64,000 bases of DNA from a virus (taxonomy: Duplodnaviria; Caudoviricetes): IMG/VR virus record IMGVR_UViG_3300008267_000012. One strand, given 5' to 3'. The position numbers and the translations under genes were made by a program. Positions 16,000 through 53,869 of the stretch are shown piece after piece. Every line of letters starts with the position of its first letter. Position 1 is the first letter of the stretch. Below the pieces are notes generated by a model, which saw nothing but the letters and a program-made list of their open reading frames with translations, searched no databases and was not told the DNA's origin.

Positions 16000-16083
16000 G
16001 TCAGAGTGATGAAATCGGTAGACATGCAGGACTTAAAATCCTGTGGCAGCAATGCCGTGAGGGTTCAAATCCCTCCTCTGATA
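16000..16083 (+). tRNA. tRNA-Leu(TAA)
   Basis: Acceptor GTCAGAG/CTCTGAT, anticodon arm CAGGA-CTTAAAA-TCCTG, long variable arm, T-arm GAGGG-TTCAAAT-CCCTC. Confidence 0.93.
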
Positions 16084-16088
16084 CATAA

Positions 16089-16162
<74 letters not shown>

Positions 16163-16391
16163 CAATGACTAAGAGATAGTCAGAGTCTTTAATCCAAGAC
16201 TTAAACAATGGATAGGTGTTTGGTAGTATCAGTCTTAATAATAAAATTGACTACTCATTGGGAATCAGGTCAGCCTATCCGCTTTCCCCCAAGTAAGGAT
16301 TGACTGTTTTCATGGGGTAAGACCCACAGGTTTTGGAACAGAAGAAAAAACCGAAGCATCTACTCACAAGTAATCTCATTGTGGGGCTTAT

Positions 16392-16474
16392 AGTCAGGTG
16401 GCACATAATGGGATGAATGGTTGTCCTAACCTGAGAAGGGTGGTGCGAAGCAGGTTCAACTCCTGTCCTGACTA
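16392..16474 (+). ncRNA. tRNA-like element with intact acceptor and T arms but a non-canonical D/anticodon core
   Basis: AGTCAGG/CCTGACT 7-bp stem plus GCAGG-TTCAACT-CCTGT; no canonical anticodon arm. Confidence 0.55.
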
Positions 16475-16477
16475 CAA

Positions 16478-21727: not shown

Positions 21728-22513
21728 ATGAAAATTTGTAAGAAATGTTTAAACCCAAAAAATGAATCAGAATTTGGTGTTGATAAATCCAAGAAAGATG
21801 GACTATCAATTTATTGTAAGGATTGTCAAAAAGAAATAAGAGAAAAATATAAAGGCAAATATGACCATAATGAATATTATGAAAAATATAAAGAAAGGAA
21901 GAAAGAATACTATCAGGAAAATAAAGAAAAAATAAAAGAATATTATGAAACAAATAAAGAAAAAATAAGCGAAAAAAGAAAAGAATATTGGGAAGAAAAT
22001 AAAGAAAGAATAAAAGAAAAATATAAAGGTAAATATAAATATCCTTACAAACCTAGAAATTATACAGAAGAACAAAAACTTAAAAGAAAATTATACGATA
22101 AAGAATATAAACAAATCCATAAAGATAGATATAATCAAAAAAGAAGACTGTATAAAAAATTAAAAAAAGAAAATGACCCCATTTTTAAACTAAAAGAAGC
22201 ATGTAGAAAATCAATCTATATGTCAATTAAAAGAAATGGTTATACAAAAGAAACTAAAACTTATGAAATATTAGGTTGTTCATATGAAGATTTTAAAAAT
22301 CACATTGAATCACAATTTGAAAATTGGATGAATTGGGATAACTATGGTTTATGTAATAATGAATTTAATTATGGTTGGGATATAGACCACATTGTTCCTT
22401 GCGCTTCTGCTAAAACAGAAGAAGAACTTTTAAAACTAAACCATTATACTAACCTTAGACCACTATGCTCTCACATTAATAGAAATATTAAAAGAGATAG
22501 GTTGGATTTTTAA
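21728..22513 (+). CDS. HNH endonuclease with N-terminal Zn finger and KEYY-type low-complexity repeats
   Basis: CKKC...CKDC; WDIDHIVPC...NHYTNLRPLCSHINR. Confidence 0.85.
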   Translation: MKICKKCLNPKNESEFGVDKSKKDGLSIYCKDCQKEIREKYKGKYDHNEYYEKYKERKKEYYQENKEKIKEYYETNKEKISEKRKEYWEENKERIKEKYKGKYKYPYKPRNYTEEQKLKRKLYDKEYKQIHKDRYNQKRRLYKKLKKENDPIFKLKEACRKSIYMSIKRNGYTKETKTYEILGCSYEDFKNHIESQFENWMNWDNYGLCNNEFNYGWDIDHIVPCASAKTEEELLKLNHYTNLRPLCSHINRNIKRDRLDF

Positions 22514-22653
22514 AACGAAAAATTATATAAAAAATTTTTTAACACACAATCTATTTTGGAGTTGAAAAGTTGTGCAGGAATTTTTTACAAAATTTTTTTC
22601 TAATTGTAAACTAATTTTTGTAGCCGATACATCCATGCTGCCCCCACATCTAT

Positions 22654-22714
22654 GGGAGGGGGGTGGGTGGGCTGTGTTATAGGGGGGTACAGAGGGGGGT
22701 ATGCCCAGGGGGGT
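22654..22714 (+). other. G-tract cluster (potential G-quadruplex)
   Basis: AGGGGGGT at 22657, 22681, 22693 and 22707, plus GGG runs, in a very AT-rich background. Confidence 0.75.
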
Positions 22715-22867
22715 CTCCCTGACATTTCCAAATCTTTTTTCAACTTTTTCTTACATCAATCTTACATTAGGACTTTTCCCATATCGGTTAGGACTAATCC
22801 AGTATTGTACTTTGCCCAGGCGACATAGGACAAAACAATGAATGCGATTTAAGGCATCTGCAAGGCT

Positions 22868-22930
22868 CTACAATGAACGCAAGGTTCAAATGGTATCTGA
22901 ACCTCACCCGAAACTTTGCGTTGATTGTAG
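22868..22930. other. Long imperfect hairpin
   Basis: CTACAAT/ATTGTAG, AACGCAA/TTGCGTT and GGTTCA/TGAACC nested stems. Confidence 0.7.
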
Positions 22931-22957
22931 GCTGTGTTGCGCTTGAATTAGGGCATA

Positions 22958-22985
22958 AAAAAAGGGAGGCTTTCACCTCCCTTGT
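22958..22985 (-). terminator. Intrinsic terminator of the sigma-like gene
   Basis: AAGGGAGG-TGAAAG-CCTCCCTT followed by a T-tract on the minus strand. Confidence 0.8.
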
Positions 22986-23000
22986 TTTGCCGTTCCGTGC

Positions 23001-23795
23001 TTAGAAAATTTCACGGAGGGCTTTCACATTGCATAGGGCTTGCAAGCGGTCATCGGCAAGCATCCGCTTCTTTTGGACATAGTACGCATTGCGGTTCAGC
23101 CACCCCTGAAGAACGCAAGCATCTGCGGTAGGTAGTGGCGAAACCTCCACCTCAATCATCCGTTCAAAGGTCTGCCAAAACCTGCGGTCTGCATTGTTAT
23201 CGGCAAGGTTGAACAAGTGGCGCACCTCTTTTTGGAGGTCAATTTCCACCTTTGACTTTGAGGCAAGTGCCATTGCCCTCTCCACCTGCGGATTAACCAT
23301 TTCGTTGTTATCATCATCGGCAACGAAGAGGCTGATGATAGCCTTAGTCTTTGAATTGCCACCTTTCTTTGCGCCATTCTGAACGCATTGGATTGAGGCT
23401 TTCAGCCAAAGCCTCCAAAAGCGACCTTGCGTAAGTGGTTCACCATTGTAGGTGAAATCTGCGTGGCTGAACCGCAAGATACCCTTTTTCTTGGTCGGGG
23501 TAATGAGGCGAAGGTATGCCTCTTGTGCAAAGTCTTCAGCGGTCTTTGCGGTAAACCTCTGACCGATACCCAAAAATGGGTATTTTCGGATAAGCATAAA
23601 GGCAATGCCTTTTGCCATAAGTTGCGCCCTTTTATTGAACCCTTTCGGGGTCATCGGGCAAACATCCATTCTCTTTACGAACTTGCAAAGAGAGATAACA
23701 CGAACCTTTTTAGGGGTGTTATCAGATGAAACAGATACAGAAGGAGTAGTGGCAACCCCGTTGCTAACTACTGAAGAAGTGATTTGATTTTTCAT
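23001..23795 (-). CDS. Divergent sigma-70/ECF-like factor (putative phage sigma)
   Basis: Region-2-like TAEDFAQEAYLRL...FWRLWLKASIQCVQNGAKK, IISL, helical region-4-like C-terminus; markedly higher GC; ATG 23795 directly follows GATATTTGCA. Confidence 0.55.
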   Translation of the reverse strand: MKNQITSSVVSNGVATTPSVSVSSDNTPKKVRVISLCKFVKRMDVCPMTPKGFNKRAQLMAKGIAFMLIRKYPFLGIGQRFTAKTAEDFAQEAYLRLITPTKKKGILRFSHADFTYNGEPLTQGRFWRLWLKASIQCVQNGAKKGGNSKTKAIISLFVADDDNNEMVNPQVERAMALASKSKVEIDLQKEVRHLFNLADNNADRRFWQTFERMIEVEVSPLPTADACVLQGWLNRNAYYVQKKRMLADDRLQALCNVKALREIF

Positions 23796-23863
23796 AATGC
23801 AAATATCGGCATAAGAAGTAATACACTCCAAATCTGACACAAAAATAAATTTAAAATAAACCC

Positions 23864-24145
23864 TAACTCATTGATAATCAGCGAGAAAAAAGTTGAAAAT
23901 TTTTGTAAGAAATCATAACTCACTGAAAATCAGCGACTTGAACCAGGCAATGGTATATGAACTGCGTGAGGTGTGCGTATGCGTGTGTGCGTGTATGAAA
24001 CAAAATAAATGAAACAAAAAAATTTATTTGCTGTACTGAACTAATAGACCATAGGACAAAACCAAGATTTGAATCAGAACTCGTTGAAAACCAGGCACTT
24101 AGGTCTTAATTTAGGTAGTAACCATAACTGACTGATAATCAGCGA
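23864..24145 (+). repeat. Four copies of TAACTnnnTGA(T/A)AATCAGCG
   Basis: Copies at 23864, 23916, 24077 (degenerate) and 24125; the core CTGAT-A-ATCAG is palindromic. Confidence 0.8.
23971..23997. repeat. 27-bp alternating purine-pyrimidine tract
   Basis: GTGTGCGTATGCGTGTGTGCGTGTATG. Confidence 0.8.
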
Positions 24146-24457
24146 CTTCCTTTGTATTCGCATAACTATTTTTTTTGGTATCAGAGTACCAAAAAGGCAC
24201 ATCGTGTCTTATACGCAATGTTATGAGGCTGAAAACGCATTCTAATAACGCTGGTAAGGTTACCAAAAAACTTGGTAGAAAATAAATTTGGAAATATGGA
24301 AAATGGTATTCTGAAAAATGGGAAAAATGCCTTAGTCAAAATAATTGAGAAAAGCAAGGAATTGAAAAAATAAAATTATTTTCAAATAATTTTGGTAATG
24401 TCAAAAATCCTCCACTGGCCTGGCCCTGGCGCAAGGTGAAAAAATTTTCAGATTTTT

Positions 24458-24594
24458 TGTAAGATTTGAGAGGTGAGTTCATATACTATACTAAGACAAA
24501 AGCATTACTGCTTTGCAGGTATGTTTCTTTCTTATCCATTTGGTTTTTACACTTTTATAGAAAATCCCTTTGAAATTCAGAGGGATTTTTTTTT
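24458..24594 (+). ncRNA. Rightward 36-bp element followed by about 100 nt without an ORF and a terminator (putative sRNA)
   Basis: Element at 24458-24493; hairpin AAAATCCCT/AGGGATTTT plus T-tract at 24561-24594. Confidence 0.45.
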
Positions 24595-24617
24595 ATTCTT
24601 TTTTTAATAAAAAAGAA

Positions 24618-24664
24618 GAAGCCCGAACCAAGGGAAGGTTAATCGCAGGTAGTTCGCCCAAACT
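24618..24664 (+). repeat. 47-nt non-coding repeat, copy 1
   Basis: GAAGCCCGAACCAAGGGAAGGTTAATCGCAGGTAGTTCGCCCAAACT, identical to 25247-25293. Confidence 0.9.
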
Positions 24665-24722
24665 TTTTTAAAATAAATTAAAAATAAAAAAAGGCAATCA
24701 CTCCCGATTGCCTTTCCCGAAC

Positions 24723-24956
24723 TTACTTGCACATTGCTTTCAGTTCCGCTTTTATCTCCTTGGCTTTCTCACCTCTCCAAGAGGAAGCATTGCCAAGGAA
24801 GTAAAGAACGATTGACTTTCCCGAATCCCAACCATAATCCTGGTTTACGGAATCCATTTGCGCCATTGCATCCAAATAAGGCTTGGCTGCAAAATTGATG
24901 TTTTTCCAATCCTTCCTAACCTCGGAAGCGATTTGGCTTAGTGTTCTTGTTGTCAT
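24723..24956 (-). CDS. Conserved small phage early-type protein (77 aa)
   Basis: ASEVRKDW...AKPYLDAM...YFLGNASSWRGE; ATG abuts the 36-bp element. Confidence 0.75.
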   Translation of the reverse strand: MTTRTLSQIASEVRKDWKNINFAAKPYLDAMAQMDSVNQDYGWDSGKSIVLYFLGNASSWRGEKAKEIKAELKAMCK

Positions 24957-25013
24957 AATATAGTATATGAATTGAGGTGTCATATCTTACATTTTATTTT
25001 AAAATAAATTTTA

Positions 25014-25183
25014 ACAATGTCAATGTATATACAATGTAGTGGTTCTGACAATGTTAATGTATATACAATGTATGACTTTCTGTATTGTGTGTTATTTTAC
25101 ATTGTTTGCCTTTTGACAATGTAGGAACAATGTCAGGACAATGTAGGCTTATACACAATGTTATGAGAATGTTTTGACATTGT
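25014..25183 (+). repeat. ACAATGT heptamer array
   Basis: Forward copies at 25014, 25031, 25048, 25065, 25116, 25127, 25138, 25155; reverse copies at 25099, 25177. Confidence 0.9.
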
Positions 25184-25193
25184 TGAAAAAGAA

Positions 25194-25293
25194 TGTAAGA
25201 TATTGACATTGAGTTCATATATTATAATGTAAACAAGATTGTTACAGAAGCCCGAACCAAGGGAAGGTTAATCGCAGGTAGTTCGCCCAAACT
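25194..25293 (+). ncRNA. Rightward 36-bp element plus 47-nt repeat copy 2 (putative sRNA)
   Basis: Element 25194-25229; repeat 25247-25293. Confidence 0.55.
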
Positions 25294-25325
25294 GAACTAT
25301 AAAATATATGAATAAAAAAAGTCAA

Positions 25326-25682
25326 TCAGAAATGATTGACTTTAAGTGTCACACTCTTTGGTTTCCAATTCAAACCCCAAAAAAAGCCACCGAAACACCC
25401 TGTTTGATTGTATTTATATATATCATACATAAGTATGTCTACAATTCCTTTTGCATACTCTATACCTACATATTCCCCAATTACTTGTCTGATTTGGAAA
25501 AAAGTAGTTTCCTCTTCTAAGTATTCTTGAAAAATATAGGGCAAATACTTCTTCAGTTGTTCTAAATCAGTAGACATTCCTTCTTCAGTAAGCCAATTGT
25601 CTATATACTCCCATAACCCTGATATGGATTGGAAAGCAACGCTTGAAGTACAAGTTGTGTTTACATTAGGATAATTTTCCAT
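25326..25682 (-). CDS. Hypothetical protein
   Basis: Intact ORF behind the 36-bp element at 25707. Confidence 0.75.
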   Translation of the reverse strand: MENYPNVNTTCTSSVAFQSISGLWEYIDNWLTEEGMSTDLEQLKKYLPYIFQEYLEEETTFFQIRQVIGEYVGIEYAKGIVDILMYDIYKYNQTGCFGGFFWGLNWKPKSVTLKVNHF

Positions 25683-25762
25683 TTTATTTTTTTTTAGTGT
25701 TTGTTGTAATATAGTATATGAACTGACCTTACAAATCTTACATAAATTTTTATTTTATTTTT

Positions 25763-25864
25763 TGTAAGATATTTGATATGAGTTCATATATTATATGGCA
25801 AACCACCTGGGTTTGCGGAAGCCCGAACCAAGGGAAGGTTAATCGCCTGTAACTTGTCCAAACT
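25763..25864 (+). ncRNA. Rightward 36-bp element, short hairpin and 47-nt repeat copy 3 (putative sRNA)
   Basis: Element 25763-25798; hairpin GCAAACC/GGTTTGC; repeat 25818-25864. Confidence 0.55.
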
Positions 25865-25918
25865 GAAATGATAAAAAAAATTAAATAAAAAAAGGGAAGA
25901 TTTCTCTTCCCTTAGTTA

Positions 25919-26296
25919 TCAGATGAAATCTGATTTCTCTTGATACTTCTTGAAGGCAAAATCAGCACTTGGTGTATCGCCATTGAGAACGATAAGACCT
26001 GTTACCTTGGTTCTGCCTTGACCAAACTTGGCTTCCCAAATGAAAGCAGTTGCTTCCAAGATTTGGGTGTTGGTTGAATCAGTACCCATCCAAACACGGC
26101 ATTCATAAATGCCATCTTTTTCAGGTGCATCTCCAAACCACTTGAACTTATCCCAACCTCCAAATGAAGAGGCTTTGGATTCAAGTTCTCCGTGCAAGTA
26201 CACCCAAGGTGTGTACGATAAAACCTCTTCTTTGAAAGGCAGAAGAGCATTTCCTGATTCCATCAATGTTGGAACGATAGTGTGTAAGTGTGTCAT
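25919..26296 (-). CDS. Hypothetical protein
   Basis: ATG abuts a 36-bp element; ends in a hairpin terminator. Confidence 0.75.
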   Translation of the reverse strand: MTHLHTIVPTLMESGNALLPFKEEVLSYTPWVYLHGELESKASSFGGWDKFKWFGDAPEKDGIYECRVWMGTDSTNTQILEATAFIWEAKFGQGRTKVTGLIVLNGDTPSADFAFKKYQEKSDFI

Positions 26297-26355
26297 AATA
26301 TAGTATATGAATTGAGATACGAAATCTTACATTTTATTTTAAAAAAAAACAATCT

Positions 26356-26410
26356 ACAATGTCTTGCACAATGTCTTGTACAATGTCAATAAAAAAGGGG
26401 AACACAATGT
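26356..26410 (+). repeat. ACAATGT array (12-bp period), with one further copy in a terminator loop
   Basis: Copies at 26356, 26368, 26380; 26404 lies within GGGGAAC-ACAAT-GTTTCCCC. Confidence 0.85.
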
Positions 26411-26427
26411 TTCCCCTTTGAAGATTG

Positions 26428-26847
26428 TTACTTTGCTCTGCAAACTGGTCCAAAGCCAATGCTGATTGAATCAGCATCAGTCAGAGGTCTTCCGCACCTT
26501 AGACATTTGCCTAAGTGCATTACCTCCACTTGGTCAGCAACTGCTTGATGATTACCAAGTTGAATATTGTGGAGAATCCACGCAATCCCTTTGGCTGAAG
26601 GTGTATCAACCTCTTGACCTTTACGGACAACCTTGCCATCTTTAAAGAAGCCAAGATACAACCATTCAAGATAGTTGGTTTCCACTTTGATGTGGGTGTA
26701 CCATTTATCATTGAACTGCTTGCGACTTACCTTGTAGGTGAAGTCTTTACCACTTCTCTTTGAGAGTGCGGTGAACTCACCACCATTGGATTGAGTATCA
26801 CCTTGAATAAGAGAAAGAAGTGCGGAGGTAGGAACTAAATTTTTCAT
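26428..26847 (-). CDS. DUF6011-like Zn-ribbon protein
   Basis: C-terminal GKCLRCGRPLTDADSISIGFGPVC. Confidence 0.75.
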   Translation of the reverse strand: MKNLVPTSALLSLIQGDTQSNGGEFTALSKRSGKDFTYKVSRKQFNDKWYTHIKVETNYLEWLYLGFFKDGKVVRKGQEVDTPSAKGIAWILHNIQLGNHQAVADQVEVMHLGKCLRCGRPLTDADSISIGFGPVCRAK

Positions 26848-26978
26848 AGTGTTATTGTTTATTGTAATATACTATATGAACTCAGTTGCGAAATCTTACA
26901 TTTTATTTTAAAATAAAAAAACCCTACCGATATAACCGATAGGGTTTCCAAGAAAAACCAATAAACACCCAAATACAA

Positions 26979-27143
26979 TCAATCCCAATTTTTTCGCTTC
27001 TGTGCGTTTCTATTATACTTTTTGGAATCCTTACCTACCTTAGTGGTAAATCTTGAATCACCATTGGTATCACGCAGATACATATCTCTTTTTATCTTCC
27101 CATAGTTAATGGGAGAAGTTGTTGTTGTTGCTGAAGTTTTCAT
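26979..27143 (-). CDS. Small basic protein (54 aa)
   Basis: Manual ORF MKTSATTTTSPINYGKIKRD... abutting a 36-bp element. Confidence 0.65.
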   Translation of the reverse strand: MKTSATTTTSPINYGKIKRDMYLRDTNGDSRFTTKVGKDSKKYNRNAQKRKNWD

Positions 27144-27166
27144 ACTTATATATATGAACTCAAGTG

Positions 27167-27517
27167 CTAAAACTTACAAATAAATTTAATTCTTTTCTCT
27201 TGTGCCTTTTCGTATTGAATATCACTAAGCCAAGAAGTAGCCAAAGCAGATACACCGATACCTAACGGAATAAAAATCATTGGATTACCATTATCTTCTT
27301 TTTTATAGATGTGGTAAGAAGCGACTGCTGAAACAAAAGCAGCGACTTGTAAAACCTTAGAAGTACCTTCCAATATCTTTGCCTTCTGCAAATGGAGATT
27401 AATTTCCTTACGGACTGAATCCCTCTTTTGGCGGTACATAATGGTTTTGTAGTTAGTTTGCCCCATAACCGATGAGGCAAACAAACAAAGTACCGAAACA
27501 ATGATTATCTTCTGCAT
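27167..27517 (-). CDS. Secreted/membrane protein
   Basis: Signal peptide plus two hydrophobic helices; final codons (CKF*) overlap the next 36-bp element. Confidence 0.7.
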   Translation of the reverse strand: MQKIIIVSVLCLFASSVMGQTNYKTIMYRQKRDSVRKEINLHLQKAKILEGTSKVLQVAAFVSAVASYHIYKKEDNGNPMIFIPLGIGVSALATSWLSDIQYEKAQEKRIKFICKF

Positions 27518-27717
27518 TCCCTTACGATTTTAAATTTATTCGTACCATTGATAGGGAATACCACTTCACCAACCTTGAACTCTCTATCCACCTTAATCTT
27601 GTGTGTGGTGATAGTATCGCCATCTACACGATGAGCAATAACCATTTTGGTTGTGCTTTCTATGCAAGAGGTCATCATCCCGATAACAACTGCCAATGTC
27701 AATAATCTTGTTTTCAT
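27505..27717 (-). CDS. Putative lipoprotein (70 aa)
   Basis: MKTRLLTLAVVIGMMTSC lipobox-like; ATG abuts a 36-bp element. Confidence 0.7.
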   Translation of the reverse strand: MKTRLLTLAVVIGMMTSCIESTTKMVIAHRVDGDTITTHKIKVDREFKVGEVVFPINGTNKFKIVRECRR

Positions 27718-27759
27718 AATATAGTATATGAATTGAAGTGTCAAATCTTACAATTTATT

Positions 27760-28014
27760 TTATTTCTTTTCTACAAGAACCCAATTATGTTGGGCAGTAT
27801 GAATCACAATGGCTTGATGCTTCTTTCCATCAAAGCCAACATATTCCAATGTTTTTTGTGATGCTTCATGAGGTTCAAGAGGTTTATCTTTTGAATTTGA
27901 ATGCTCAACAAAAGCACATATTACCGCAGTAAACATAATTGCAAACAATGCAACTATTGCTACTTTATAATAATTATCTTTCATAACCCAATTGTTAAAA
28001 TTAATAACCGACAA
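27760..28014 (-). CDS. Small membrane-anchored protein
   Basis: One TM helix; true start may be the internal MKDNYY. Confidence 0.65.
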   Translation of the reverse strand: MSVINFNNWVMKDNYYKVAIVALFAIMFTAVICAFVEHSNSKDKPLEPHEASQKTLEYVGFDGKKHQAIVIHTAQHNWVLVEKK

Positions 28015-28107
28015 ATGATAATGAAAAGTGAAAAGGAAATACCCAATACCACGATAACATCAAAGACCATATTTAGCCTTCTCTGTTGCTTATAAAAATC
28101 TTCCATA

Positions 28108-28347
28108 TTATTTCATTGTACTAAAACCATTTGAACAAACTATTCTATCTGAGGCATACAATTTTTCTTGAAAACCAGCCTTGCGGATTTCTTCAACTTC
28201 TTTGGTAGACATACCACCTTCTGAAATAGGCGCATCCAATAAGACCTTTGCAAATCCAACGAACAAGCCAAAACTTTTTCTATAAGCATCTGCAAGAATT
28301 TCCTTTTGCAAATTTTTCGGGAGAGATAATAACATTTCTTTAATCAT
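28108..28347 (-). CDS. Hypothetical protein
   Basis: Start moved downstream of the element at 28366. Confidence 0.65.
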   Translation of the reverse strand: MIKEMLLSLPKNLQKEILADAYRKSFGLFVGFAKVLLDAPISEGGMSTKEVEEIRKAGFQEKLYASDRIVCSNGFSTMK

Positions 28348-28465
28348 TTTTTTATTGTTTTGATGTAATATAGTATATGAACTCAATGCTGAAATCTTAC
28401 AATTTATTTTAAAATAAAAAAACCCTCTGCCATTTCTGACAAGAGGGTTCTATGAACAACAAACA

Positions 28466-28768
28466 CTAAACTTTCAATAACCTTTGAATCAAATCAGTTA
28501 TTTCATTTCTGTTTTGATAATACAGAATATCATCATTTTCACTAAGTTGAATCCATTCGTGTCCTTCTTTGTACCAAGCAGCAACCTCAAAGGTATGGAT
28601 ACCATCACCACCTAATCTTGGTTGATGTTCGGTTGGAAAGCCACCGATAACGGAAATGATTACCCCATTGGGTAATTCGTGCATTGAAGCAACCAAACCC
28701 TGACCTCCTGGATGAACCCCAAATACGAGGTCATCAAATGAACTTATTTCTTTCTTACAGATTTCCAT
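28466..28768 (-). CDS. Hypothetical protein
   Basis: Behind the element at 28786. Confidence 0.75.
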   Translation of the reverse strand: MEICKKEISSFDDLVFGVHPGGQGLVASMHELPNGVIISVIGGFPTEHQPRLGGDGIHTFEVAAWYKEGHEWIQLSENDDILYYQNRNEITDLIQRLLKV

Positions 28769-28866
28769 TTCTTAAATGTTTATTGTAATATAGTATATGA
28801 ATTGAAGTGTCAAATCTTACAATTTATTTTAAAATAAAAAAAGGGAGTATTTCTACTCCCTTAATT

Positions 28867-29175
28867 TTACTTTACAAGAAAGTCAAAACCACCAACCTTT
28901 CCCACATTCCGACCATTGATACCAAGTATTCGGCAAATCAATGCACCTAACTTTTTGGTTCTCATATTGGCGATGAGAGAACCTTGCCACTTCCCTTCAG
29001 TTTCAACTGAGGGTGAAAAGTTAAGTGACCCGACTTCACGAATAAGCCATTGGTCATCTAACCTATGCTTTTCTCTAAACTTAGAGATTTCCCCTAAGAT
29101 GAAAAGATGTGTACCTTTGGGAGTTTCAACGATTAAATCCCATTTGCCTTTTGACTCAAAGATGTATGCAACCAT
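28867..29175 (-). CDS. Hypothetical protein
   Basis: Behind the element at 29193. Confidence 0.75.
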   Translation of the reverse strand: MVAYIFESKGKWDLIVETPKGTHLFILGEISKFREKHRLDDQWLIREVGSLNFSPSVETEGKWQGSLIANMRTKKLGALICRILGINGRNVGKVGGFDFLVK

Positions 29176-29248
29176 TTCTTAAATGTTTATTGTAATATAG
29201 TATATGAACTCACCTTACAAATCTTACATAAAATTTTATTTTATTTTT

Positions 29249-29341
29249 TGTAAGATATAAGACTTGAATTCATATATTAAGGTGTAGCAATACAGAAGCC
29301 CGATTCAAGGGAAGGTTTATCGCCTGTAACTTGCCCATACT
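29249..29341 (+). ncRNA. Rightward 36-bp element plus 47-nt repeat copy 4 (putative sRNA)
   Basis: Element 29249-29284; variant repeat 29295-29341, followed by a TTGCCCATA/TATGGGCAA hairpin. Confidence 0.55.
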
Positions 29342-29370
29342 TTTTTTAGATATGGGCAAAAAAAAGAGGG

Positions 29371-29643
29371 TTAATACCCTCTCTCTTTCTTGTACTTCTC
29401 TTGCACCTTTTCAAGTTGCGCCAACGCATCCTTGTTGCTCCTTGCAGTCAGACCATAGTAGTCTTTAATCTGCTTGGCAGTTATGCCCTTGAATAGCATT
29501 CCCTTTGAAAGGATTTTCATTTGGAAGATGTGGGTGTTCAACTGATAGCCAAAGTAATCAATTTCCTTATCACCCATACTTACTTTCGGTGTTTGCAGTT
29601 CTCCCGACCTTGCAGAAGCAACTGCTTGTTCAAATTGTGTCAT
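29371..29643 (-). CDS. Hypothetical protein
   Basis: ATG abuts a 36-bp element. Confidence 0.75.
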   Translation of the reverse strand: MTQFEQAVASARSGELQTPKVSMGDKEIDYFGYQLNTHIFQMKILSKGMLFKGITAKQIKDYYGLTARSNKDALAQLEKVQEKYKKERGY

Positions 29644-29719
29644 AATATAGTATATGAATTCACTTGCCAAATCTTACATTTTATTTAAAAAAAAAGGGAG
29701 TATTTCTACTCCCTCTCTT

Positions 29720-30604
29720 TTAGACAAGTGCAACTCCCTTTCTTTCAGCGACTTCCGTAAGGAATGAAAGAGCATCGGTGTTGAACTTCATATTACCACC
29801 CAACAGATTGCCGTAGGTATCGGTAGAAGATTTGGTGTGTGTGGTGTAGTGTGTTACACCATTGAAAGCACCCCAAAGATTCATACCCAAATCCGCAGTT
29901 TCTCTGTTCAGAGAATCCATCAAAGCCACCTTAGTATTACCCTTTCTTACAGAAAGAATATCACCTTCAGCAATCTTTGTTTCATCAATGTTCAGAAGCC
30001 TATTGGCAAGGGCATCAAGAATAGACCTATCAATCTTGATTTCAGACATTTTCTGAAAGATGATTGCCTCTTGTTCCTTTTCAGCACGGAAGCCACGAAC
30101 AAGGTCAATAAACATATCCACCTTGTAGTTGTGGTTCTTCGTGTGCCGAACCTTCAACCCTTGCATCACCCGACCCCATTGGTTGAAACAACGAAGCAAG
30201 ATGTTTACACTACCAACGAAAAGTGGTGTAGTGCCATCGTGTGAATTACCAAATACAAGGTAGTTCTCACTTTTCAGACCAAGATACTGATGCACAAGGT
30301 CATCGGTTGCTTTCAGATAGGCAAGTACCTTAGTACCGCCACGAAATTCAGCGAACCCTTCAAGTTCGTAACCCGAAGCATCAGCAAGTTGCCTTGCGTG
30401 TTCTTCAAAGGTTCGGTTCTTTGTTTCCGTATATGAATCACGGAACAAACTCAATGTTTCCAAAGTATCACTCCTTTTCAGAGCAACATATCTTTCTTCG
30501 GGAACGAACAGACCACTTTTTGTTTGTGTGTAAGGTGTGTGTCTTTCCACCTCCCAACCAAGGCTTTCCTTGAAATCCTTGACTGCATTTGATTTGCTTG
30601 TCAT
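29720..30604 (-). CDS. DUF932 / TIGR03299-like phage-plasmid protein
   Basis: LGWEV...YLVFGNSHDGT...VRHTK...NLWGAFNGVTHY. Confidence 0.8.
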   Translation of the reverse strand: MTSKSNAVKDFKESLGWEVERHTPYTQTKSGLFVPEERYVALKRSDTLETLSLFRDSYTETKNRTFEEHARQLADASGYELEGFAEFRGGTKVLAYLKATDDLVHQYLGLKSENYLVFGNSHDGTTPLFVGSVNILLRCFNQWGRVMQGLKVRHTKNHNYKVDMFIDLVRGFRAEKEQEAIIFQKMSEIKIDRSILDALANRLLNIDETKIAEGDILSVRKGNTKVALMDSLNRETADLGMNLWGAFNGVTHYTTHTKSSTDTYGNLLGGNMKFNTDALSFLTEVAERKGVALV

Positions 30605-30690
30605 AATATAGTATATGAATTGAGATACGAAATCTTACAATTTATTTTAAAAAAAAGGGAGAAATTTCTTCTCCCTTGATTTTCAGTTAC

Positions 30691-31188
30691 TTACTCACCA
30701 ATCTTAATGATATTGCTTTCTTTGGGGCAAATCACCATAGACTGCTTAGTTAGTTTCTCTGCATCAGAGGCGGTCAGATACTTTTTGAATGTATCTTCCT
30801 GCACCTGAATACCATCTACCATAAAGGTATAGGTAATTTCGCAGTTATCCGTAGGGTATAGTCTGATATACCTTTGTTCCTCCGTTTCGTTTTTTGGAGT
30901 ATGCAAAATGGTATATGGGAAATGCTCCCAACGACCCCAAGGGAGTGAACCAACCTCACCTCTTGTTCCATCGGCAATGCCTTCAAGAACAGGTTTGAGG
31001 TTTGCGTAATTGATACCTGCCCTAAACACACCTTTGGTATGCTTGGTCAGTTTTTTTCCTTTGAAAGCCTTAGATGGCTTAACATCGGAAATGAACTCTG
31101 CTGAAAGGAATTGACCTTTGCAGGTAAAGAAACGGCTTGCCACTCCCGACAGACCGCTTGGCACTTGTAATTGAGAGGTATTACTCAT
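30691..31188 (-). CDS. Conserved phage hypothetical protein
   Basis: RAGINYANLK...LPWGRW...YIRLYP; ATG abuts a 36-bp element. Confidence 0.75.
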   Translation of the reverse strand: MSNTSQLQVPSGLSGVASRFFTCKGQFLSAEFISDVKPSKAFKGKKLTKHTKGVFRAGINYANLKPVLEGIADGTRGEVGSLPWGRWEHFPYTILHTPKNETEEQRYIRLYPTDNCEITYTFMVDGIQVQEDTFKKYLTASDAEKLTKQSMVICPKESNIIKIGE

Positions 31189-31270
31189 AATATAGTATAT
31201 GATTTCACTTGCGAAATCTTACAAAAATAAATAAAAAAAGGGAGAAATTTCTTCCTCCCTTGATTTTCAG

Positions 31271-31660
31271 TTAGTTACTCTCAGAATGTTCTTGAACAAT
31301 CTCCATTCGGGTTTCGTGTTCCTCTTTAAGGTCTGTAATAGCATCCTTAATGAGGTCTAAAACATTCCTTTTCTGCTCATAAGCATTAACCTCAAAATCA
31401 TCAAGTTTAATGGTATTACCATAACTAATTTCAAATGATTCATTTGAGATTTCAAAGTTGCTTGCATCATCAAAGTCATAGCAATCAAGAACATCAATAA
31501 TCTTATCCCTAACTAAGTTAAGAATAGCAATGAAATCTTGCTTTGACTCTTCCACCTTCGGTTCTTCTGAAACCATATTTAAGGTGTTTACAACATCATC
31601 TTTGGTGAAGAGGCTTCCAAGCGAATCTTGCACCTTTGCGATTACTTCTTGTTTTTTCAT
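31271..31660 (-). CDS. Hypothetical protein
   Basis: Start MKKQEVIAK after the element at 31678. Confidence 0.75.
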   Translation of the reverse strand: MKKQEVIAKVQDSLGSLFTKDDVVNTLNMVSEEPKVEESKQDFIAILNLVRDKIIDVLDCYDFDDASNFEISNESFEISYGNTIKLDDFEVNAYEQKRNVLDLIKDAITDLKEEHETRMEIVQEHSESN

Positions 31661-31759
31661 TTTATTTATTTTGTTTGTGATATAGTATATGAACTCGTTG
31701 TTCAAATCTTACATTTTATTTTAAAAAAAAAGGGGAAATTTCTTTCCCCTTAATTTAAA

Positions 31760-32044
31760 TTAGATAAGTGGCAGATGGTCAGATGGATTGAAATTATCAT
31801 TCTCCTTTTTGAATAGTTCCACCATCTGTTTGCAAGTGGTGTGAGAATATTGATTGCGACCATCATAACGATAGTCATCAGATGCAACATACTCAATCCA
31901 CCTCAAACAAAGTCTTGTAAAAGATTGTTGGAGAGTACGATGCTCACTACCCATTGCATTTAAAAATCCTTGCTTATCACAACCGAAGTTGTTTACGAAG
32001 TCAGACATTACCAATGCTACTTCGCTTGCGTTTTTGTTTGTCAT
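31760..32044 (-). CDS. Hypothetical protein
   Basis: EHRTLQQSF...DGRN; ATG abuts the element. Confidence 0.75.
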   Translation of the reverse strand: MTNKNASEVALVMSDFVNNFGCDKQGFLNAMGSEHRTLQQSFTRLCLRWIEYVASDDYRYDGRNQYSHTTCKQMVELFKKENDNFNPSDHLPLI

Positions 32045-32150
32045 AGTATAGTATATGAACTCAAGGCTCAAATCTTACATTTTATTTTAAAAAAAAATCC
32101 CCATCATTTCTGAATGGGGATTCTACTACATAAACAACAAACAAACAAAT

Positions 32151-53779: not shown

Positions 53780-53795
53780 TGTGTGTGAAATTTAG

Positions 53796-53869
53796 TGTTC
53801 CCTACAGGGCTTGAACCTGTGACCTACTGATTATGAGTCAGTTGCTCTGACCAACTGAGCTAAGAGAAC
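53796..53869 (-). tRNA. tRNA with CAT anticodon (elongator Met or Ile2)
   Basis: Acceptor GTTCTCT/AGGGAAC with 1-72 paired (not initiator); ACTGA-CTCATAA-TCAGT; T-loop TTCAAGC. Confidence 0.92.

Follow-up and report, generated by a model that had tools for sequence, protein, structure and literature searches.

Four copies of an intergenic element in a phage cassette array

We analysed a stretch of 64,000 nucleotides (nt), hereafter the window, from an uncultured, giant freshwater phage (Duplodnaviria; Caudoviricetes; IMG/VR record IMGVR_UViG_3300008267_000012), and in it a short element that occurs four times on the plus strand. The proteins of the window include a family B DNA polymerase and phage-type proteins. 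The 47-nt cores of the element lie at 24618-24664 (W1), 25247-25293 (W2), 25818-25864 (W3) and 29295-29341 (W4), dispersed with 570-3477 bp between copies. A preliminary description of this DNA had listed repeats at these sites, and matches to the 29-nt start of the element, for which the chance expectation in the window is 0, confirm them, without mismatch at 24618, 25247 and 25818 and with three mismatches at 29295. W1 and W2 are identical across all 47 nt, while W3 and W4 diverge mainly in the 3′ third; since the start of W3 matches perfectly, this copy has the same first 29 nt and diverges only in its 3′ part. All four copies are intergenic and run in the opposite direction to the flanking genes, towards gene 3′ ends, with no coding sequence downstream on the plus strand.

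The elements are closely associated with a promoter-like motif of 32 nt (TGTAAGAT, nine free bases and GAGTTCATATAnTAT), which is present in 33 copies, against 0.01 expected. An ATG open reading frame (ORF) of at least 40 aa follows each of the 29 minus-strand copies, at +3 in seven cases and at +19 to +31 in the others. The four plus-strand copies start at 24458, 25194, 25763 and 29249, and no such ORF follows three of them; behind the copy at 25194 there is only a 70-codon frame at +82, past the element, which overlaps the minus-strand gene 25326-25682 and is probably spurious. Three of these four copies end 14-23 nt upstream of an element, namely 25194-25225 and 25763-25794 (both without mismatch) ahead of W2 and W3, and 29249-29280 (two mismatches) ahead of W4, so that the placement of three repeats directly behind a rightward motif without a real ORF, as previously described, is borne out. 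The remaining copy (24458-24489, no mismatches, no ORF after it) belongs to a short separate unit, and W1 lies past the terminator of that unit, a terminator-like hairpin with a U-run at 24563-24596 on the plus strand; the same arrangement recurs in a 170-kb relative (see below). Because ORFs follow the left-facing copies and elements follow the right-facing ones, we take the motif to be an early promoter of the phage and the elements to be the transcribed product of its right-facing copies.

From the sequence evidence set out below, the elements most likely behave as small non-coding RNA genes and not as a chance repeat. More specifically, they are probably paralogous genes, driven by early promoters, for small RNAs with a predicted length of about 70-120 nt that would act in trans as a binding platform or decoy.

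The surrounding array has the properties of the PeSL cassettes of T4-type phages, in which shuffling is mediated by promoter-terminator modules that enclose small protein genes (PMC2839356, PMC4122927): one early promoter and one terminator stem-loop are repeated for each small gene, and terminator hairpins recur through the array. The modules are also reshuffled between close relatives. Cassette blocks of the window (25883-28832) are 76-86% identical to those of a related contig, L027 (4643-7858), and stand in a different order, which is, at the level of sequence comparison, direct evidence of module shuffling. The array differs from PeSL cassettes in that four of its modules have no ORF and instead carry a structured RNA, conserved well beyond the promoter and terminator.

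A family with two covarying helices and an invariant core

A profile search combined with a covariance model returned 77 real matches, corresponding to 73 distinct sequences; within the window the model matches only W1-W4, with 89.9, 79.2, 75.7 and 70.3 bits, respectively. The element is carried by about 22 metagenome contigs, at least some of them lake-derived, often in 2-6 copies each and with up to 6 copies within 11 kb. By pattern scan, a 170-kb IMG/VR contig that is syntenic with the window (77-83% identity) has four copies at matching sites, and a 74-kb IMG/VR contig has five. W1 and W2 are identical within the window and their counterparts (L001 and L002) are identical within the 170-kb relative, yet the pairs differ between the two phages, which points to gene conversion (concerted evolution) among dispersed copies.

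Each unit consists, in order, of an early promoter, a hairpin (P1), a 4-nt joiner (GAAG, or RGRT in a variant), a second helix (P2), AAGR, T-N-N-ATCG, N3-G-N-A and an 8-nt variable tail, after which comes a U-run, an A-run or ATAC-YTT-ACTGA. P2 is a 3-bp helix closed by the heptaloop G-A-N-N-M-A-A, which is extended to 8 nt in five copies. The column entropy is zero at loop positions 1, 2, 6 and 7, at A-A-G, at the T, at ATCG, at the G after N3 and at the next A, and altogether about twenty nucleotides are invariant over the 73 distinct copies. In the window, P2 is formed by 24622-24624 and 24632-24634 in W1, 25251-25253 and 25261-25263 in W2 (heptaloop 25254-25260), 25822-25824 and 25832-25834 in W3, and 29299-29301 and 29309-29311 in W4. 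P1 precedes three of these cores on the plus strand: in W2 it is a 5′-terminal hairpin of about 7 bp with one bulge (25228-25246), predicted in both the minimum free energy (MFE) and the centroid fold; in W3 it is a 7-bp hairpin (25798-25816), predicted in the centroid fold, in which 25798-25804 pairs with 25810-25816, and in both copies the family covariation supports it. In W4 it is a 4-bp hairpin with a GCAA loop (29283-29294), recognized from the sequence and identical in the orthologous copies of the 170-kb relative.

To determine the pairing of P2, the 73 copies were aligned without reference to structure, anchored only on the invariant ATCG. P2 is paired in 73/73 copies, with the stems CCC/GGG, GGG/CCC, CCG/CGG, CCA/TGG, GGA/TCC and TCG/CGA, which require at least 5 independent double changes on three pairs. 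In the model-fitted alignment, 93.5% of the cells of P1 and P2 are paired, and 9/9 pairs show changes on both sides; because this alignment is biased towards the structure, it is reported alongside the anchored count. None of 500 shuffles reached the observed covariation score, and all slid controls were far lower. The covariance model, which the earlier analysis had proposed to build from homologues, thus reveals constraint on both sequence and structure, but the conserved helices are P2 (CCC/GGG) and the upstream P1, and not the stems CGAAC/GTTCG, CAAG/CTTG and AGG/CCT suggested before, which are not kept across the family.

P1 is much more variable than the core, with 44 distinct sequences of 4-8 bp that differ even between copies of one phage. 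Its MFE fold is a hairpin ending no more than 2 nt from the joiner in 62 of the 73 copies. Many U-G pairs are tolerated on the plus strand, which on the opposite strand would be C-A mismatches.

Past P2, no Watson-Crick covariation was detected and there is no family-wide 3′ helix; the invariant core, a purine-rich stretch, is predicted to be mostly unpaired. Two candidate helices in this region were considered and set aside. A helix between the tail and its downstream complement is strong in several relatives and in W4, where it would form a hairpin with a U-rich loop (29331-29359, plus strand, −13.7 kcal/mol), but this is specific to the copy and not family-wide; swapped tails pair equally well (native −5.6 versus swapped −5.9 kcal/mol), and the tail helix is therefore not established for the family. 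A terminator-type alternative helix, in which GGG-AAGGUU would pair with the tail, lacks compensating changes in both the CGG and the stem-flipped variants. Taken together, folding predicts a small RNA whose 5′ end is protected and in which one very short hairpin and one open stretch are conserved.

The family appears to be narrowly distributed. A loose pattern gave 86 stretches in IMG/VR, and apart from contigs in which the family had already been found there was a single match with a pairable P2, which is A/T-only and unconvincing. When 185,579 prokaryote species, represented by one genome per species, were scanned for the exact core, the only hits were 7 chance matches that lacked the upstream (5′) half. 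In a sample of 401 Bacteroidota genomes the loose pattern matched 2 times and its reversed control 5 times. In the data searched, the family is therefore limited to one freshwater phage lineage. Within it, the units of other phages are mostly co-directional with neighbouring genes, so the antisense placement, which the preliminary description had reported together with the intergenic position and which is true of all four window copies, is particular to the lineage of the window and not a feature of the family.

Promoter coupling and the nature of the predicted transcript

The promoters were also compared across the family. A box TAnnTTYG, which we take to be the Bacteroidota-type −7 box, ends 21-25 nt before the joiner in 51 of the 73 copies, and a phage-type box is found instead in 10, window copies included. 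These two promoter types are unrelated, and both put P1 at the predicted start of the RNA or a few nt from it. An exchange of promoters that leaves the spacing to P1 intact would be difficult to account for if selection did not act on the RNA itself.

This coupling bears on the other possibility raised in the preliminary description, a signal acting at the level of DNA, such as an attC-like folded recombination site, an origin or a protein-binding site whose transcription is incidental. We regard such a reading as quite unlikely, since the hairpin lies where the RNA is predicted to start, at a spacing kept for two unrelated promoter types, only the plus strand tolerates G-U pairs, and the element can face either way with respect to its flanking genes. 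In its favour are the position of the element among promoter-gene-terminator cassettes that relatives carry in shuffled order, the ACAATGT repeat arrays that adjoin W2, and the identity of copies 1 and 2 within each phage, which suggests recombination between copies. The likeness to the attC sites of integrons, that is, a folded element tied to gene cassettes whose helix arms change together, does not extend further: attC conserves structure, has a fixed orientation and needs an integrase, whereas the element has a far more conserved primary sequence (about 20 invariant bases), a variable orientation and a coupled promoter.

A coding function was considered as well. Many relatives carry, within the 3′ arm of P1, an ATG or GTG from which the core can be read in frame (GAA-GCC-CGA onward), and some of the variation falls at third codon positions (TCG/TCA, ACA/ACG), as could be the case for a micropeptide. 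No start codon is in frame in the window copies, however, and the stem-flipped variant would encode a different peptide in every frame, with no shared reading frame. Moreover, U-runs and A-runs are interchangeable after the tail across copies, synonymous sites are invariant and the two arms of P2 change together. A micropeptide is thus extremely improbable, and this candidate was rejected as contradicted by the covariation.

At the 3′ side, each window copy is followed by a hairpin that it would share with the gene converging on it from the minus strand. These hairpins, identified from sequence and fold on both strands, lie at 24690-24715 for W1 (gene 24723-24983), 25320-25341 for W2 (gene 25326-25682) and 25894-25911 for W3 (gene 25919-26296), and each may be the 3′ end of the respective RNA; W4 and the gene 29371-29670 have in common a two-way terminator hairpin at 29366-29381.

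The position of these terminators is also informative about a possible cis-acting role, in which the element would be a nut- or put-like modifier of the polymerase, an insulator against convergent transcription, or a transcript that primes replication or forms an R-loop. The boxB sites of lambda and P22 are hairpins bound by the N protein, and the element resembles them in its short GC stem, its purine-rich loop beginning G-A and ending in A, and its location just downstream of an early promoter; with N-N-M flipped out, the P2 loop would be similar to the G-A-A-A loops of boxB. The convergence of the window units on gene 3′ ends also speaks for such a role. A cis-acting role is nonetheless very unlikely. 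In most relatives a U-run or terminator comes directly after the element and the next gene is served by a promoter of its own, which leaves antitermination without a downstream target, and in the window there is no plus-strand coding sequence to be reached. In addition, the element has a loop of 7 nt on a stem of 3 bp, its units stand alone at scattered sites, it has no known N-like protein, and no boxA was seen on reading the upstream sequences, although no formal motif search was made.

Comparison with known RNA families and systems

The whole window was compared with Rfam 15 at gathering thresholds, which returned only transfer RNAs (tRNAs). A permissive search of 24400-25950 gave a best match with E 0.04, at about half its threshold, which spans terminators and not the element, so that no Rfam family matches the element in either search. 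No tRNA or transfer-messenger RNA was found at the element sites by ARAGORN or Rfam, the tRNAs of the window being confined to 16000-16475 and 53795-53869. Literature searches revealed no earlier description of the family.

The preliminary description had interpreted the repeats as small RNAs analogous to Racr, that is, RNA anti-CRISPRs, which are solitary phage repeat units resembling host CRISPR repeats (PMC10651486). The first part of this interpretation is supported, because promoters, covarying helices and invariant bases all indicate small non-coding RNA genes; for the analogy there was no support. The element is like Racr in being a small, stand-alone, non-coding phage unit with its own promoter, presumably engaging a protein early, and differs in having no CRISPR-like or other cellular counterpart among the genomes searched and no repeat-like features. 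Neither CRISPR-repeat-like features nor tandem repeats were detected in it, no array accompanies the 7 chance matches in the 185,579 species genomes (a scan of one genome per species, which is not exhaustive with regard to the true host), and there is no similar sequence in the 401 Bacteroidota genomes or in Rfam.

The same evidence weighs on the more general idea of a mimic of a host immune or antitoxin RNA (Racr-like, a guide or tracrRNA mimic, or a pseudo-antitoxin) that would load or titrate a defence protein. The early, multi-copy, stand-alone units of a host-takeover region would suit this role, and both RNA anti-CRISPRs and viral single-guide RNAs exist (PMC10651486; 10.64898/2026.06.01.729453; 10.64898/2026.06.03.729762). 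The viral single-guide RNAs, including rAcrIIA1, share with the element a 5′ hairpin, a middle part containing AAGG and a 3′ terminator. However, with 4-8 bp and 44 sequences, varying within one phage, P1 is too short and too variable for a repeat:anti-repeat duplex, and a family-wide 3′ helix is lacking. The element also has no guide segment, because the hairpin begins at the predicted RNA start, and no tracrRNA matching it was found. Type III (ToxI-like) antitoxins are not a close parallel either, the copies being dispersed and the flanking ORFs having no informative match. Together with the outcome of the genome scans, in which the core gave only chance matches and the loose Bacteroidota pattern fewer than its control, this makes an immune-RNA mimic improbable.

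The element thus represents a new RNA family within the phage small RNAs, absent from Rfam and carried as RNA cargo in a T4-type cassette array. It has several marks of a functional RNA (two covarying helices, about 20 invariant bases, its own promoter at a kept spacing and multiple copies per genome), and it indicates that T4-type cassette arrays are able to carry RNA besides small proteins. To our knowledge, few phage small RNAs have a known role, and almost none of these come from Bacteroidota phages or from uncultured giant freshwater phages.

Partners and proposed mode of action

Both RNA and protein partners were sought. The conserved core, predicted to be unpaired between a 5′ hairpin and a terminator, has the usual layout of a trans-acting base-pairing small RNA, which could use AAGG-U-NN-AUCG as a seed to pair early with host mRNAs or distant phage mRNAs. 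No site complementary to the core was found besides the genes themselves in the window, the 170-kb relative and the 74-kb contig (64 + 170 + 74 kb), and complementarity to one Bacteroidota ribosomal RNA operon was not above chance. The invariant positions are, moreover, broken by the free N-N and N3, which is unusual for a seed, and a base-pairing regulator seems doubtful on these grounds.

As to possible protein partners, Pfam recognises none of the six ORFs that flank the elements, and any PHROG they match is uncharacterised; the other ORFs of the region match only DUF6011 and DUF932. A family of 165-aa proteins (30691-31188 in the window, minus strand) has 10 members among the relatives, most of them adjoining the RNA genes, although these contigs are not independent. 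It has no Pfam or PHROG match, and its structural model (pLDDT 77) has no match in the PDB and only uncharacterised relatives in the AlphaFold DB.

The base-pairing, Racr-type mimic, DNA-level, cis-acting and coding readings all rank below that of a small RNA serving in trans as a binding platform or decoy, which is most likely its function. The RNA genes sit in the host-takeover region, and we propose that each copy is transcribed from the phage's own early-type promoter. P1, at the predicted 5′ end, would protect that end; the P2 loop and the invariant single-stranded core would jointly form a specific binding surface; and the tail would run into a U-run or a shared terminator hairpin. The RNA would then act in trans early in infection, and the gene dosage (4 copies here, up to 6 in relatives) may raise its level. 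That the core is invariant and yet predicted to be unpaired makes it look like a binding surface. A protein is a more likely partner than another RNA, since free positions interrupt the invariant bases, no complementary sites were found in the sequences searched and the fold is minimal; the RNA would accordingly be a decoy, a sponge or a cofactor.

Several observations weigh against this proposal. P2 is only 3 bp long, and the window copies fold no more stably than shuffled sequence (z of -0.4 to +1.3). W1 has neither a P1 hairpin nor a promoter of its own, and the 5′ and 3′ ends of the RNAs are placed by prediction. Finally, no binding partner was identified, and the neighbouring 165-aa family gave no functional clue.

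A more specific version, which we put forward tentatively, is that the RNA is a new kind of decoy, made in bulk from several early genes, whose invariant loop and single-stranded core capture and neutralise a host RNA-binding protein. This protein could belong to host defence, as a sensor or a nuclease, or be a global regulator of RNA in Bacteroidota. If true, this would be a form of counter-defence that does not copy a host RNA sequence, and therefore distinct from CRISPR-repeat mimicry. The invariant bases provide a ready design for mutants and pull-down baits, which makes the target of this early phage RNA directly testable.

Other features of the region

In some relatives two units stand tail to tail, converging about 20 nt apart (L028 1714-1866, L033 1116-1268, L034 1568-1720, L037 8023-8175 and L030 2125-2274). 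One member of such a pair is often the variant with the flipped P2 stem, and the 3′ regions of the two units would be complementary if transcription ran on.

The separate unit upstream of W1 (24490-24596) begins with a small 5′ hairpin, followed by a possible Phe-rich ORF of about 28 codons, and closes with a second hairpin and a U-run; this 3′ portion is also present in the 170-kb relative.

For the minus-strand genes of 24960-32079, leaderless mRNAs are predicted at 7 of the 29 gene promoters, where the ATG lies 3 nt after the motif. The remaining promoters of this interval have a common leader of 19-31 nt, mostly starting with A-T/G-T-G/A-T/C-A-A; this initial sequence reappears in W2, in the 5′ arm of P1.

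The window is A+T-rich (26-29% G+C), and within this genome of 24-31% G+C an island of 33-38.5% G+C lies at 22-32 kb; this richer segment (22000-32000) coincides with the start of the cassette array. The early genes include one with DUF932 (29720-30604, minus strand) and one with DUF6011 (26428-26847, minus strand), domains that are common in the leading regions of plasmids and the early regions of phages. Arrays of the heptamer ACAATGT, with more than 10 copies, occupy 25010-25190, directly upstream of the right-facing promoter of W2, and a shorter run is found at 26350-26385; these arrays may be bound by a regulator or may represent an origin-like region.

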